Positions 4,496 to 49,497 are shown, numbered from the stretch's first letter. The stretch: DNA of 51,153 nt from a virus (IMGVR_UViG_637000105_000004), one strand, 5' to 3'. Numbers and translations: made by a program. The notes: generated by a model from the letters alone, not told the origin.

Positions 4496-4722
4496 AAAAT
4501 AATCTCGGTGTGAGATGCTTTACGTCTTCCAAGCCCCCTTCCTTGCCGTAAATGGAAAGATACATCTAATTATAGAATTTATATGTTTTACCCTACGGCA
4601 GTGCTGGCCATTCAATATCCTGTGCAGTTGACGTATCAACACGGTTCAGCAACACCCGATACTTTTTCCAGGCTTCCAGCAACGGGGTTTCTTCCTCCGT
4701 TGCATATACAGCTCACCTTTTT

Positions 4723-5031
4723 TCACCCACGATTAACCAACAGCCAGACCAGCAGACACGCCACCACCGGCACAGCAAAATCCATCAGGCTTGCCACATC
4801 CCACACGCGCGGATCAAAACCGCCCCACCACGGCATGTTAATCCTCTTGCCATGCCCAAACATTTCAATCCAGCGATATTCCGCCTGGGTGTGTTCACGC
4901 GCAATGAAGAACGTACAACCGGCTATCGCCCCGTAAGCCCAGTTCCCGGTAAAAAGACCAACCAGTAGCTGCGCAGCCACAGCACAAAGCGCATGAAGGA
5001 AAGGTGTTATATCCATTTTCATCCTACCCAA
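4723..5031 (-). CDS. Small hydrophobic membrane protein (about 98 aa)
   Basis: ORF with predicted TM segments (LHALCAVAAQLLVGLFTG, AVPVVACLLVWLLV); likely start at MKMDITPF. Confidence 0.5.
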   Translation of the reverse strand: MGRMKMDITPFLHALCAVAAQLLVGLFTGNWAYGAIAGCTFFIAREHTQAEYRWIEMFGHGKRINMPWWGGFDPRVWDVASLMDFAVPVVACLLVWLLVNRG

Positions 5032-8829: not shown

Positions 8830-9500
8830 TCAAATGCGCCTATAAGGCTCTCTTACCAGCCGCGCCCTAACAGGCGCACACGATCTGACATTTGCATCCA
8901 ACTTCGTTACTTACGGCCCGTAAACGGGCTGCCCGGATAGGGAATCGATAACTGCTCTCCCATTTTATCCTCTTCAAGCTGGTGCTTTATGTAATCCTGT
9001 ATCTTCGCCGTGTTCTTACCCACTGTATCGACGTAGTACCCTCTGCACCAGAACTCCCTGTTCCTGTATTTGAATTTCAAATCACCAAACTGCTCGTAAA
9101 GCATCAGACTGCTTTTCCCTTTCAGATATCCCATAAACCCGGATACGCTCATTTTGGGCGGGATCTCCACAAGCATATGGATATGATCTGCACAGCATTC
9201 AGCTTCCAGAATCCGTACGCTTTTCCACTCACACAGCTTTCTCAAAATACTGCCTATTGCTCTACGCTTCTCTCTGTAGAACACCTGTCTTCGGTATTTT
9301 GGCGCAAAAACTATGTGATATTTACAGTTCCATCGGGTGTGCGCTAAGCTCTTTTCGTTCCCCATTGGGACCCCCTTTTGATTTCTTGTTTGACACTTGC
9401 AGTTGCCAGACCGCAAAGTGTTTTAACAAATCAAAAGGGGTTTTAATAACTGGCTCAAAGCTGAAAGCTTTCCGGAACCCCCAGCCTAGCTGGGGGTTTT
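8830..9500 (-). mobile_element. IS200-like insertion sequence (IS200/IS605 family); boundaries approximate
   Basis: Contains Y1 HUH transposase gene with flanking hairpins; inserted between lom and stf. Confidence 0.75.
8907..9365 (-). CDS. tnpA: IS200 transposase TnpA (152 aa)
   Basis: Translation MGNEKSLAHTRWNCKYHIVFAPKYRR...HIHMLVEIPPK... matches IS200 TnpA from memory. Confidence 0.9.
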   Translation of the reverse strand: MGNEKSLAHTRWNCKYHIVFAPKYRRQVFYREKRRAIGSILRKLCEWKSVRILEAECCADHIHMLVEIPPKMSVSGFMGYLKGKSSLMLYEQFGDLKFKYRNREFWCRGYYVDTVGKNTAKIQDYIKHQLEEDKMGEQLSIPYPGSPFTGRK

Positions 9501-30930: not shown

Positions 30931-31201
30931 AATGTTACCGTAATATGTGAGTATCCATCGACTAGACACTAAGCAAAAAAGCTCCCGAAGGAGCCTTCAT
31001 TTTCACTTTCTTAAATCTAACGACAGATGGCTAACATTTAAGTATTGTGAAATATTATCAAATGTAATCATCATTGATTTACAAAAGATACATTTTGCCC
31101 CGAAAGGATTTCTGTCAGAAACATCAAAAGATGATGTTCTATACTGAGAACCATGGCAACACGGGCATCTAAAGTGAATATGGTTTGTAATATTTTCTAC
31201 C

Positions 31202-31414
31202 TCAAAGTGCCACTACATGAACAGCTGCAGGGCCTTTAGGTCCGTTCTCAATACCAAATTCGACTTCCTGATTCTCAGTTAACGTTTTGAAATCGTTGCT
31301 CTGAATAGCTGAGAAATGCACAAACACATCTTTGCTACCATCTTTCGGCGTGATGAAACCAAAACCTTTTTCAGGGTTAAACCATTTCACTAAACCAGTC
31401 ATTTTGTTAGACAT
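31202..31414 (-). CDS. cspI: Cold shock protein, CspA family (CspI-like, 70 aa)
   Basis: [38 protein letters not shown] with RNP1/RNP2 motifs. Confidence 0.9.
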
Positions 31415-31778
31415 CATTATTACCTTTTGAAGAAGTTAGCCCTTGGGCAGAATGGTCCGAAAAAAAATATCAGAGAGAAAAACCAACAAGAAAATCTCAA
31501 GAGGTACAAATAATAAAATTATAACAATGACTGCTTCAGATAATTTTGTAACAAACCAGAACACCATTAACGCATGATTAACCAACCATAGCAAGGATTA
31601 CTTTTGTAAAGAAAAACACACGAATGAAACAATAGCTTTATTTATTAATAAAACGTGTCATTCTGTCTAATGACCTTTTATCTTACCCTTAAGATTTCAA
31701 GGATTTTGACTCATGGAAGAGTCCTTTTTATTTAAATTTCACATTCAAGCGCTAAAAATAATCCGATTTAATATTAAT

Positions 31779-34288: not shown

Positions 34289-34651
34289 TTGATTTTATTC
34301 GTAACAAGTATTTTTTATATTTTAATAACATATTTAAAGCAGATAATAAAAAACCCGCCTGAGCGGGTTTAATATTGTGGTACTTTTTGTGGGAGTCATC
34401 CACTTACGCACTTTGTTTTGCTATGCCAGCAGTTAGCTTCTGCTGTAAAACTATTCATGCAGCAAACCTGCACTTCACCACAATGGTTAGCATACTTTTC
34501 CTGATTAAGTTATTGCCAAATATGCTGGCCATTGTTTCATGTATTGGACCTCCTTACTATTTATTAAAGAGATCCAATATTCACCACTCTGTCTGTATCT
34601 CCACTCAGGCATCAGCCTTCTTCGTTATCGTATACAGACAAACTATGAATT

Positions 34652-34867
34652 TTAATCAGTAATTATGACATTTGCTGCTGCAGGACCTTTAGCACCACTC
34701 TCTACAGAGAAGGTAACCTTTTGACCTTCAAATAAGGTTCGAAAATTATCATTCTGAATCGCAGAAAAATGCACAAACACATCTTTACTACCATCAACAG
34801 GAGAAATAAAGCCAAAACCTTTATCAGCGTTAAACCATTTTACTAAACCAGTCATTTTATTTGACAT
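34652..34867 (-). CDS. cspB: Cold shock protein, CspA family (CspB-like, 71 aa)
   Basis: [42 protein letters not shown]... Confidence 0.9.
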
Positions 34868-35167
34868 TCTACATTCCTTAACTTGAGCCTTTCGGCATAA
34901 ATGGCTTGTATAACAGAAACGACTTCGTACTTAATTGGAGAGACTCAAAGAAGGAATAAGTGAATAACACCTGAAATGAGAACTGCTTTAGTAAACTACT
35001 TCGTATATCGTCTGTTCTTCAAACCGACGCAATCATTAACGCATAGTTGAACATATGAAGCAATGTTTATTTTAGACATCCAGCCATCTTCAACCCCATC
35101 AAAAAACTATAGCTTTCTTCAGGAACGTGTGTATAGTGCGCCCAGTTATCAGTATTAAGGAATTTTT

Positions 35168-41751: not shown

Positions 41752-42378
41752 ATGGAAACGGTTGGTCAGCGTATAAAAGCTCTGAGAAGAGTTACCAGAA
41801 CGTCCCAGAAAGAATTGGGTAAATTTTGTGGAGTAAGCGACGTTGCTGTGGGGTACTGGGAGAAAGACATCAATACCCCTGGCGGGGAGGCACTTTCGAA
41901 ATTAGCGAAGTTCTTCAATACGTCAATAGATTACATTCTTTATGGTGCTGAGTTTGAAGGCAAACTCGTCACAAACATGCGCAGAGTTCCTGTAATATCG
42001 TGGGTTCAGGCTGGGCAGTTTACTGAGTGCAGGGCAGCAGAAGTGTTTAGTGAAGTGGACAAGTGGGTAGATACATCATTAAAGGTTGGTGATAACTCAT
42101 TTGCATTAGAGGTTAAAGGTGACTCCATGACTAACCCTAATGGCCTCCCAACAATACCAGAAGGCGCAACAGTGATTGTAGATCCAGATGCAGAACCTCG
42201 TCATGGAAAAATAGTCATCGCTCGACTTGATGGAACAAACGAAGCTACAGTAAAAAAATTAGTCATCGATGGCCCTCAAAAGTTTTTAGTGCCATTAAAT
42301 CCTCGGTATCCCAACATCCCTATCAATGGTAATTGCCTTATCATTGGTGTAGTCAAAGGAGTTCAATACGAACTCTAA
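41752..42378 (+). CDS. CI-like repressor (HTH plus S24 LexA-type peptidase domain, 208 aa)
   Basis: N-terminal HTH (RTSQKELGKFCGVSDVAVGYWE) and C-terminal autocleavage domain with GDSM Ser and a downstream Lys. Confidence 0.9.
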   Translation: METVGQRIKALRRVTRTSQKELGKFCGVSDVAVGYWEKDINTPGGEALSKLAKFFNTSIDYILYGAEFEGKLVTNMRRVPVISWVQAGQFTECRAAEVFSEVDKWVDTSLKVGDNSFALEVKGDSMTNPNGLPTIPEGATVIVDPDAEPRHGKIVIARLDGTNEATVKKLVIDGPQKFLVPLNPRYPNIPINGNCLIIGVVKGVQYEL

Positions 42379-42384
42379 GATCTC

Positions 42385-42470
42385 TCTTCTCTAACTAAGG
42401 CACCGAACTAAGAAAAGTTTGGTGTTTTCTCTTGCCATGATAACTAAGTTAAGTTAGATTTTATATCAAA
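42385..42470 (+). promoter_or_regulatory. Putative OL/pL-like operator-promoter region downstream of the repressor gene
   Basis: Three more AACTAAG heptamers (42393, 42406, 42442) plus TTGCCA and TAGATT hexamers with 17-bp spacing. Confidence 0.45.
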
Positions 42471-42542: not shown

Positions 42543-42568
42543 CAAAAAAGCGCCCTATAGGACGCTTC
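42543..42568 (-). terminator. Rho-independent terminator after the 42594-43106 gene
   Basis: Minus strand agcgtcctatagggcgct followed by tttttgttg. Confidence 0.6.
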
Positions 42569-42580
42569 GCTCTTTAACAA
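42569..42580 (+). promoter_or_regulatory. boxA-like element (GCTCTTTAACAA)
   Basis: Exact 12-mer matching the rrn/nut boxA consensus as recalled, on the strand transcribed from the putative pL. Confidence 0.4.
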
Positions 42581-42593
42581 TCTGGATGACTTA

Positions 42594-43106
42594 TTACTCA
42601 GATTTGAACTTTGGTTCTGGCAAAAGAGGAGGAGTTGAGTCCTCGAATCGTAGCCAGTGCTCCCAGATATCGTGGGATTGTAATTCCAGAAGACCAATTT
42701 GACGTGATGCAACTGCAGTGCCAGCTATAGTTCCTCCTACATAATCAACCTGGACGGACTTTGACGCTTTCTCAATTAATTCTGTCCAAGCTTCACTTTC
42801 CGCGTTAAAAGAAGCAGTTAATTCCTGCAGACGCTGTGGATCATCCTTGTTGTCTTGTTTCAAACGATTCAGGGCGGCCACCGAATACTTATTCTTAACC
42901 CAACTAACCTGAGCTAACTGAACTCTCTGACAAGCGTCCATATCAGTAGTTGTTTCCTGAGGCATATCAAAGCAGGAAATAAAAAAAGTCTCAACACCAT
43001 CATTTAGACTACTGCTCGGCTGGTTCAAAGCATCAGAAGCATTGGATGCTATCGGTATTATCAGTGCTACCGACAGAATCAAACGTTTAACATAAATCGC
43101 TCCCAT
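42594..43106 (-). CDS. Secreted protein with signal peptide (DUF1311/LprI-like, 170 aa)
   Basis: N-terminal signal sequence VKRLILSVALIIPIASNA; moron-like position and orientation. Confidence 0.65.
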   Translation of the reverse strand: MGAIYVKRLILSVALIIPIASNASDALNQPSSSLNDGVETFFISCFDMPQETTTDMDACQRVQLAQVSWVKNKYSVAALNRLKQDNKDDPQRLQELTASFNAESEAWTELIEKASKSVQVDYVGGTIAGTAVASRQIGLLELQSHDIWEHWLRFEDSTPPLLPEPKFKSE

Positions 43107-43129
43107 TTAATTATCCCCTCTAAGAACAG

Positions 43130-43560
43130 AGTCATCCAGATTAGCCGAATCCTTGTTGTTGGGGAATAACCAGGCCCACCTCGCCTGATGTGGCTAAAAG
43201 CAGGCACATAACAGCTAAGTATTTTCAACCAGAGAGAATCCTTAGCGTTGTGGTGAATGCGGCTCAGCGCACGCGGGTTAAGGTTGAGGCTGACAGTCGA
43301 CCTTCTGTGGATACCCACCCGCCTGGTGTGCAACCTTCGCCAGGCACCGGGAGGCCCCGGCACCACAACTTTATGCTGTGTGTAGTCCTGGCGGTACCAG
43401 CTTGTACCCTTGCTTCCGGCTGGTACCGCTCTTTTTACAAAACAGAGAAGAGCATCACCGGACGACGGGCTCATAACCCAATCCACCCGGGCGGCTGCCA
43501 CCGCAGGTGTTCTTCTCTGTTTTGTGGAGAAACCAACCGACCTTGCAGGGTCGATATGAT
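43130..43560 (+). other. GC-rich, highly structured non-coding segment (candidate cis-acting RNA or ncRNA)
   Basis: No credible protein in any frame despite open frames; perfect 15-bp long-range inverted repeat 43437-43451 / 43511-43525 and several local hairpins. Confidence 0.45.
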
Positions 43561-43573
43561 GAGGAGCAGCAAA

Positions 43574-43936
43574 ATGGCTAGCGAACGCAGTACCAACGTG
43601 CAGGAATTTATCGGGGAGCTGGACGGCGGCGTATTTGAAACCAAAATCGGCGCAGTTCTCAGTGAAGTCGCTTCCGGTGTGATGAACACGAAAACCAAAG
43701 GTAAGGTCTCGCTCAACCTGGAAATCGAACCGTTTGATGAGAACCGTGTGAAAATAAAACACAAACTCTCATATGTTCGTCCGACTAACCGCGGGAAAAT
43801 TTCCGAAGAAGACACCACCGAAACGCCGATGTATGTCAATCGCGGTGGTCGCCTGACTATTCTGCAGGAAGACCAGGGACAATTACTGACTCTTGCCGGT
43901 GAACCTGACGGAAAACTCCGCGCAGCAGGTCATTAA
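43574..43936 (+). CDS. YfdP-like protein (120 aa)
   Basis: AGGAG Shine-Dalgarno 9 nt upstream of ATG; followed by YfdQ- and YfdR-like genes as in CPS-53. Confidence 0.65.
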   Translation: MASERSTNVQEFIGELDGGVFETKIGAVLSEVASGVMNTKTKGKVSLNLEIEPFDENRVKIKHKLSYVRPTNRGKISEEDTTETPMYVNRGGRLTILQEDQGQLLTLAGEPDGKLRAAGH

Positions 43937-49036: not shown

Positions 49037-49465
49037 TAAAAACCTTATCTTACAAATAGTTGGTAATGATGTTGAATTATTTTTTGTTCTTTATGGCTAA
49101 TAAGATTACATGAAGGGACAACTTCTGGCCACCTTAGAAAACACTCACTTTAGTAACAAGAGTCAATAATATTGTTGACAAATCACAAAAAAACAAACTT
49201 ATCCAAAACAATCTGGTTTATTACAAAGCCTCTGTGCATAAATCTGTGTATAACATCATTTTTACACACATTTTTATAAAAATATTTTTTAGCAAAAAAT
49301 GCTATCTATCTCCGAAACTGCAACCACAAACCATTAATTCCAAATGAAACTATTTTAAAATAAATAGTAAGACAGTAACAGGACGGAAAAAGTTCCGCAA
49401 AAGAGCCGCGTGTAAAATCAACAATATTTGGCTATTTAAATTCAATGAATTACATAACTATGGAC

Positions 49466-49497
49466 ACGGGTTCAACTCCCGCCAGCTCCACCAATCA
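49466..49497. repeat. attR core: displaced copy of the ssrA 3' end (direct repeat of 1034-1065)
   Basis: 32-bp exact match to the ssrA 3' end, followed by ~150 bp of diverged ssrA-downstream homology. Confidence 0.75.

Follow-up and report, generated by a model that had tools for sequence, protein, structure and literature searches.

The window analyzed here, a stretch of viral DNA of 51,153 nt (IMGVR_UViG_637000105_000004), is identical in sequence to the chromosome of Escherichia coli CFT073 and contains an entire prophage integrated in ssrA, with the tmRNA gene (698-1060) at one end and a partial tmRNA copy of 48 nt (49446-49493) at the other; a tRNA/tmRNA scan of the window retrieved ssrA only. 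The segment under study lies in the early-left leader of this prophage, between a cI-like repressor with HTH and peptidase S24 domains (41752-42378), which has a divergent Cro beside it, and yfdP (ATG at 43574), followed by yfdQ (DUF2303) and yfdR. An operator of the form AACTAAG-N-CTTAG is found in three copies, two at OR (41665 and 41714) and one at OL (42442), and a sigma-70 promoter scan placed the PL promoter at 42432-42460 on the + strand (TTGCCA-17-TAGATT), with the OL copy AACTAAGTTAAGTTAG between its hexamers, about 700 nt upstream of the segment as first delimited (43130-43560). The same layout, cI followed by a long non-coding leader and then by the first early-left gene, is shared by SfV, ST64B, mEp460, 118970_sal3, phiES15, phiNP, and LLS, in which 0.6-1.3 kb without any conserved gene separate the repressor from the first early-left gene. 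Alignment of these phage leaders resolves the segment into two separable modules, module 1 (43177-43436) and module 2 (43437-43526), both read on the + strand. Where present, module 2 lies 3' of the module 1 terminator, and the gene that comes next is not always yfdP; in phiES15, module 1 stands alone ahead of kil and gam, and some phages keep module 2 with module 1 absent or replaced. The single structured segment of about 430 nt that the initial annotation had proposed is well structured, but it is not one element.

In LLS, whose repressor is 89% identical to that of the window, and in its relatives, a PL promoter with the same operator sits about 20 nt 5' of the first element of module 1, so that the PL transcript has module 1 at its 5' end. 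Between the two, the window has an inserted gene cassette, in which an ORF with a weak LprI match (42594-43106, - strand) is bracketed by 24-nt inverted repeats (42579-42602 and 43119-43142; 13 perfect, AATCTGGATGACT / AGTCATCCAGATT). At this position, other viral loci carry different cassettes, framed by the conserved sequences ...GCTCTTTAACAATCTGG and CCAGATTAACCGAATCCTTGTTGTTGGGGAATAACCAGG, and these bracketed ORFs of the PL leader look like exchangeable moron cassettes with terminal inverted repeats. A scan for a promoter of module 1's own returned nothing convincing, with only a 9/12 match at 43087-43114, and a conserved UAAAAG that had been considered as its -10 was rejected, as it is not a conserved -10 element. 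Since PL is repressed in the lysogen and no convincing dedicated promoter was found, the expression of module 1 may be limited to induction. Outside the segment, about 100 nt after PL, the 42547-42580 stretch (+ strand) has a hairpin that runs into CGCUCUUUAACAA (42568-42580), which we take to be close to the rrn/lambda boxA consensus. This motif is kept in 23 fetched loci and overlaps a terminator tail and a cassette repeat; in one locus (L336), an exact UGCUCUUUAACAA follows a different hairpin. This stretch may be a site for Nus factors in an N-less phage or no more than a terminator tail plus a cassette repeat.

The initial annotation had seen no credible ORF in the segment, both strands being open across it (ORFs at 43190-43936 on the + strand and 43079-43762 on the - strand), and comparison with ST64B, 118970_sal3, phiNP, LLS, and a Klebsiella phage bears this out. 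Against these five homologues, substitutions are spread evenly over the three codon phases (e.g., 21/30/23 and 43/41/43), internal indels measure 1, 2, 4, 7, 13, 20, 23, and 25 nt and thus do not come in multiples of three, and open frames differ in frame and place among homologues, SfV included, which is 96% identical; no conserved coding frame was found. The segment is non-coding by these comparative standards, which corrects the RefSeq (PGAP) pseudogene call of a frameshifted hypothetical protein at 43250-43559. Also as first noted, the segment is GC rich (0.57-0.60, vs. 0.38-0.45 in the flanks) and includes a ttagcc/ggctaa inverted repeat (43141-43151/43187-43197). RNA structure prediction on the + strand gives -181 kcal/mol (z = -5.46, with 0/100 shuffles as good), vs. 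z = -3.03 for the - strand against its shuffles.

Module 1 and its STnc100-type domain

From 5' to 3', module 1 consists of a 5' element, a hairpin P0, a pseudoknotted domain, a linker with a seed, and a terminator. The 5' element (CACCUCGCCUGAUGUGG-CUAAAAGCAGGCACAUAAC, 43177-43212) is kept in 40 distinct contexts and may form a pseudoknot (CCAC/GUGG and GCCUG/CAGGC) whose pairing partners are invariant across copies; in "minimal" variants, it is joined straight to the seed and terminator, the central domain being dispensable. P0 (AGCUAAGUAUUUUC ... GAGAAUCCUUAGC, 43213-43246; inverted repeat I3) is the hairpin initially placed at 43212-43249, with arms at 43214-43226/43234-43246, and its stem is compensated among phages (GCUAAG/CUUAGC, GAUAAGAG/CUCUUAUC, GAAGCGCA/UGCGCUUC). 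The domain that follows (43247-43369) is closed by P1 (43247-43255/43361-43369), a 9-bp helix that adds to the repeats first reported and whose 5' arm is followed by an AAU junction. Within it are found H1 (43259-43261/43268-43270), P2 (43272-43278/43317-43323), H3 (43323-43328/43338-43343), and H2 (43347-43351/43356-43360), as well as a pseudoknot in which AAGGUUG (43280-43286) pairs with CAACCUU in the H3 loop (43331-43337).

An Rfam/Infernal scan, one of the checks initially proposed, retrieved nothing in the segment at gathering thresholds, and by E-value it gave one significant sub-threshold match, STnc100 (43217-43438; 37.5 bits vs. a gathering threshold of 47; E-value of 2e-6 in a 901-nt search and of 1.2e-4 over the whole window). 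SfV, ST64B, sal3, and phiES15 give STnc100 matches of 35-41 bits at the corresponding position. Dozens of distinct copies of the domain, obtained from IMG/VR by pattern scans, have a common plan: their closing helix, whose inner UGGUG/CACCA is invariant, is followed by the AAU junction, the first hairpin, an insert that varies, the penultimate hairpin, and lastly CCGGG-AGGCA-CCCGG, also a hairpin. Covariation of the closing helix concerns its outer three pairs (UA/GC/GU, UA/CG/UG, GC/AU), and P1 shows 55 doubly changed cells against 26 ± 3.6 in shuffles, 0/500 of which reach the observed count, with far lower values in slid controls; because H1 and H2 came out of register when all subtypes were aligned with MAFFT, P1 alone was counted on that alignment. 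When RNAalifold was run on ten window-type copies, P1, H1, P2, H3, and H2 were recovered with nine compensated pairs. At the pseudoknot position, 19 distinct helix sequences are found across copies, and at least six Watson-Crick pairs form in 50% of own pairings but in 2.3% of cross pairings under a strict positional test, whereas an earlier statistic with wide windows and G-U pairs allowed did not discriminate. Covariation among homologs, a check initially proposed, is thus found for P1, for H2 and H3, and for the pseudoknot, and G-U pairs fit the + strand only. The mEp460 and Stx2 phages represent a second subtype, where it is the H1 and H2 loops that are complementary (GCUGAU/AUCAGC), with one compensated variant (GCGAU/AUCGC).

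To this can be added the matches of R1, a covariance model built from window-type copies only, which hits a single place in the 51-kb window and scores 50-72 bits over the full length of canonical STnc100 copies, 53-56 bits on LLS-type copies, 24-33 bits on mEp460-type copies, and 102 bits on the dicF-dicB spacer. Judged from these reciprocal matches to canonical copies, the 43247-43369 domain belongs to the STnc100/PasD superfamily despite failing the Rfam cut-off. The initial suggestion of a novel ncRNA accordingly holds for the ncRNA and only in part for its novelty, the central domain being of a superfamily already described. With STnc100 (RF02076) and PasD, the segment shares the closing helix xUGGUG/CACCAx, the AAU junction, the first hairpin, the pseudoknot between the stretch after that hairpin and the loop of the penultimate one (H3), and the near-invariant ACCGGGAGGCACCCGGCACCA hairpin with its GGAGGCA, followed by a linker and an intrinsic terminator (43391-43436). 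Unlike them, it has a first hairpin of different sequence and an extra helix P2, its linker carries an RprA seed, its H2 loop is one base short in CFT073, and it lies in the PL leader beside the repressor, whereas canonical copies belong to the late region and neighbor Q, stx, esterase, or lysis genes. Eleven transcribed STnc100 copies are known in EDL933, one of them confirmed by Northern blot (PMC5331693), and a 2026 preprint relates STnc100 to the Hfq-bound PasD sRNAs (bioRxiv 10.64898/2026.05.13.724894); expression and Hfq association as prophage sRNAs were shown in these works for canonical copies only (PMC5331693; bioRxiv 10.64898/2026.05.13.724894). PasB was also considered as an identity for the segment and was rejected because PasB lies among structural genes.

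Three further features of the domain and its surroundings are worth mentioning. The H2 loop of CFT073 (43352-43355) reads AGGC when nearly all other copies, that of SfV included, read AGGCA, so that the family's most conserved hairpin has lost one base here, a feature that speaks against an sRNA. The conserved CACAUAAC (43206-43213) ahead of P0 can pair with GUUGUG of the closing helix, as it does in the minimum-free-energy fold; this pairing would exclude P1, which makes an alternative fold or a co-transcriptional switch possible. Finally, T-arm-like hairpins (GGGGUUCGAAUCCCC, CUGGUUCGAUUCCAG, GUCCGUUCAAUUCGGAC) are present in variable inserts or upstream parts of some leaders (locus L117, 189-347; the leaders of 118970_sal3 [L008], Kp4866-6 [L005], and phiNP [L010]).

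The RprA-like seed, the terminator, and the dicF-dicB leader

Between the domain and the terminator lies a linker (43370-43390, + strand) predicted to be unpaired, in which UGCUGUGUGUAGUC (43374-43387), three nt 5' of the terminator stem, is identical over 14 nt to the seed region of processed RprA (the RprA sequence being verified against the annotated rprA). More than 120 viral contigs contain this 14-mer; among 120 fetched viral loci, 78 have a hairpin with a T-run after it, and the structures upstream of it are of at least six different kinds. In LLS-type relatives, the identity to the 3' part of RprA reaches 27 nt and includes the start of the terminator stem, and both phiES15 and LLS give sub-threshold RprA matches at the homologous place (40-41 bits vs. 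70) because their 3' end reads AUUGCUGUGUGUAGUCUUUGCCC...terminator. As for the window, a scan with the whole-RNA Rfam model of RprA (RF00034) found no match up to an E-value of 10: the part shared with RprA is limited to the 3' 14-27 nt, in which the order of the processed 3' form, seed, then terminator, then U-tract, is present. The segment differs from RprA in that it is without the two 5' stem-loops and the rpoS-pairing region, is phage borne rather than at the chromosomal rprA locus, and has a terminator stem unrelated to that of RprA. In RprA, this 3' region forms the conserved seed, and the processed form of RprA is itself a regulator (PMC5137417). Within the prophage, a search for targets of the seed returned no complementary site with three mismatches or fewer beyond the locus of the seed itself. 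Four IMG/VR contigs (L156, L159, L169, and L211) encode a fuller RprA look-alike, with AUCCCCUGA, which resembles the rpoS-pairing region of RprA, before the shared seed and terminator.

The hairpin followed by a T-run that had been spotted in the segment (GCGGTACCAGC / GCTGGTACCGC, 43391-43401/43419-43429, 100% complementary, then TCTTTTT) corresponds to an intrinsic terminator (43391-43436, + strand) with a GC-rich stem of 11-13 bp, a 17-nt loop, and UCUUUUU. When 43370-43437 is folded alone, the seed is left free and a 13-bp terminator hairpin forms (-23.9 kcal/mol). Terminator stems differ and covary among phages, and the 5' arm resembles by alignment that of the DicF terminator (UGGCGGUAYCAGYUU). 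The U-tract is short and interrupted, which counts against an sRNA. Upstream of the seed, AC|UUU at 43368-43372 fits the RNase E site consensus.

The comparison with DicF is in this regard instructive. Rfam DicF (RF00039) scores 15.9 bits in the segment (E = 1.5, vs. a gathering threshold of 48), with a different seed, and the likeness is one of arrangement. In the Qin prophage, a window-type domain separates the DicF terminator from the start codon of dicB (Rfam STnc100, 38.8 bits), and inspection by eye of the ydfC-dicF spacer revealed a P0 hairpin and a diverged domain ahead of DicF, which thus stands where the segment has its RprA-like seed and terminator. The DicF RNA itself is an Hfq-binding sRNA formed by RNase E processing and either termination or RNase III cleavage (PMC5069750). 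Segment and Qin locus thus both show an sRNA, or sRNA-like unit, embedded in the early-left operon of a lambdoid prophage with an STnc100-type domain adjoining, and a single-stranded seed followed by related terminators (UGGCGGUAYCAGYUU...CCGCYCUUUUUA). They differ in that the seed of the segment is RprA-like whereas that of DicF pairs with ftsZ, in that the strong domain precedes the seed and terminator here but follows the terminator and precedes dicB in Qin, and in their downstream genes, yfdPQR and dicB, respectively. Natural chimeras (L206, L152, and L210) even carry the RprA-like seed in a DicF-type arrangement. In the Qin prophage of E. coli SK1144 (L422, 1571-1702), the domain of the dicF-dicB spacer has an extended closing helix, UUUUGUGAUGCGGUG/CACCGCAUCACAAAA.

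Across the family, the domain is mostly followed by a variable linker and a terminator (the latter within 110 nt of the domain in 21/29 canonical copies and 7/11 type A/C copies) and sometimes directly by an ORF, which leads us to interpret the linker as an exchangeable seed and the domain as a scaffold or a 5'-protecting structure. In Qin and some other loci, the domain is found in an mRNA leader after the terminator, which indicates that it is not itself tied to an sRNA function.

We consider it somewhat more likely than not that the segment, an untranslated PL leader, combines, on the + strand, an sRNA unit built like the Qin ydfC-dicF-dicB leader, an attenuator before yfdPQR, and module 2. 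Termination at 43391-43436 would make the sRNA's 3' end, and an RNase E-type cut in the AU-rich linker just 3' of the domain probably its 5' end, as with DicF and RprA. This would yield a roughly 65-nt Hfq-type sRNA acting in trans with the second seed of RprA, while the folded domain would protect or organize its precursor. The same terminator is of the attenuator type put forward in the initial annotation and may attenuate transcription into yfdP-yfdQ-yfdR and on to int, with read-through transcripts carrying module 2 (43437-43526). Such a unit would resemble StxS, a short PR' transcript of Stx phages that ends at a terminator, lies next to its promoter, and doubles as an Hfq sRNA (PMC7547250), but StxS differs in its sequence and in its promoter (PR', which is constitutive), and no STnc100-type domain is reported for it.

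Alternatively, the leader may act in cis only, as an attenuator in which the domain and module 2 control stability, RNase III/E processing, and translation, the terminated RNA being a by-product without function in trans. Indeed, the dicF-dicB spacer, L206, L148, and L127 all have the same type of domain directly ahead of an ORF, the 72-nt DicF end made by RNase III (PMC5069750) would fall inside the extended P1 helix of the spacer domain, the stem of module 2, at about 20 bp, has the size of an RNase III substrate, and module 1 can be absent or replaced in phages that retain module 2. However, if the terminated RNA were a by-product, one would not expect an exact 14-27-nt copy of a host sRNA seed to persist across many otherwise different scaffolds and terminators, and relatives in the family are Hfq bound, with many RIL-seq partners, so that a purely cis-acting leader appears rather unlikely to us.

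Module 2 and the remaining readings

Under the sRNA-and-attenuator reading that we favor, module 2 would only be carried by read-through transcripts, and it belongs to no curated family. Its predicted fold is a three-way junction (43437-43526, + strand; z = -6.66) on a basal stem of about 20 bp (43437-43456/43506-43525). The perfect 15-bp inverted repeat first noticed in the segment (43437-43451, fully complementary to 43511-43525) is part of this stem and extends to 25-nt arms with 84% complementarity. Single-sequence folds of 16 relatives mostly agree with the three-way junction, the pairing of the basal stem is kept through compensatory CG/AU and CG/GC exchanges, and the apical hairpin is variable. 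The core CAUCACCGGNCGACGGGCUCAUAACCCAAUCCACCCGGG is near-invariant across 29 non-redundant contexts and, as such, yields no covariation. On one branch, GGGCUCAUAACCC (43467-43479) matches the anticodon stem-loop of the initiator tRNA, with an identity that runs over 14 nt (CGGGCUCAUAACCC) when compared with the verified tRNA-fMet sequence; this 13-mer occurs once in the window vs. 0.03 expected. VapC toxins of Shigella and Salmonella cleave tRNA-fMet, which makes a decoy role of module 2 conceivable. Its basal stem, which would be of the size of an RNase III substrate, also looks like an RNase III or 5'-end-stabilizing element.

Downstream of module 2, the 43527-43573 stretch (+ strand) comprises a conserved GGAGAAA, a small covarying hairpin (43538-43543/43548-43553) whose sequence changes (CGACCUUGCAGGGUCG vs. 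GGCGGUGGCAGCCGCC) with its pairing retained, and a Shine-Dalgarno GAGGAG (43561-43566) ahead of the yfdP ATG, in keeping with the initial view that the downstream gene has a ribosome-binding site of its own. Two other candidates for this stretch were rejected: a uORF after module 2, whose start codon is not conserved (GUG, AUG, or ACG), and base pairing between the CUCAUAA loop and the first gene's start codon, which is inconsistent among phages.

A broader and more speculative reading, to which we lend little credence, is that the early-operon leaders of temperate enterobacterial phages serve as a modular launch pad where a stable STnc100-type scaffold and a terminator are recombined with exchangeable seeds taken from host sRNAs, that of processed RprA here and that of DicF in Qin, and where the invariant core of module 2, presented by the read-through RNA, mimics the initiator-tRNA anticodon stem-loop as a decoy or sensor, the partners of which would be tRNA-fMet-cleaving VapC toxins (Shigella, Salmonella), MetRS, or the 30S P site.

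The initial annotation had also raised the possibility of a put-like RNA, in which the nascent fold would bind RNA polymerase and replace N by promoting read-through of the 43391-43436 terminator and of later ones. The segment does occupy the place of HK022 putL (PMC9378689): both are structured RNAs with which the PL transcript of an N-less lambdoid phage starts, both are followed by a terminator, and in LLS-type phages the 5' element begins about 20 nt past PL; no N-like gene was found between PL and yfdP in the window, and the early-left genes stand behind a strong hairpin terminator. However, putL is about 70 nt long with two stem-loops (PMC9378689), much smaller than the segment, and has neither sequence nor fold in common with it: a motif search of the HK022 PL leader found nothing shared, and R1 had no match in the HK022 loci. 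Moreover, neither the Rfam E-value scan nor R1 revealed a second copy behind PR or elsewhere in the window, which leaves the segment with no putR-like partner, the canonical relatives are free-standing, terminated, Hfq-associated sRNAs of late regions, and the central domain is dispensable in the minimal variants. With this balance, the put-like role does not hold up well and has, in our view, a slim chance of being right.

A role at the DNA level, with the repeats serving as sites bound by proteins, as boundaries of recombination or of cassettes, or as conserved junctions between the modules of mosaic lambdoid genomes, would suit the exchangeable cassettes with terminal inverted repeats that lie immediately upstream, the invariant core of module 2 with its lack of covariation, and the coincidence of module boundaries with similarity breaks between phages; yet it is very improbable given that helices are kept by compensatory and G-U changes that fit the + strand only, that loop-loop and pseudoknot pairings covary, and that the T-run of the terminator is on the + strand only. 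As to a protein-coding gene, suggested by the PGAP pseudogene call, by the long open frames on both strands, and by the small hypothetical proteins that several phage records annotate at the segment, it is hardly credible in view of the evenly substituted codon phases, the indels of 1-25 nt that are not in threes, and the frames that shift among homologues, including SfV.

From a broader perspective, these homologies link three RNAs that had been treated separately, STnc100/PasD, DicF, and RprA, and present the STnc100 fold as a widespread pseudoknotted scaffold in early and late leaders of lambdoid phages, including the well-studied dicF-dicB spacer, to which phages attach different seeds, an exact copy of the host RprA seed among them. 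Matches with at least 80% query coverage are found in 1,607 of 5,426 complete E. coli genomes; were the RNA to act in trans, induction of the prophage would, in more than a quarter of such genomes, flood the cell with an RprA look-alike. In the searchable literature, we found no transcript data for this locus and no paper on it, nor anything about RprA-like RNAs of phages or about a mimic of the initiator tRNA in their leaders. The capture of the RprA seed and, above all, module 2 are the parts that deserve experiments, and for the latter, conserved and strongly folded, the 14-nt identity to the initiator-tRNA anticodon arm offers a concrete lead.

The same prophage encodes other structured RNAs on the - strand, namely two cspA-thermoregulator leaders (31156-31572 and 34589-35028), a full STnc490 sRNA (9375-9498), and a partial IS009 match (4627-4725).
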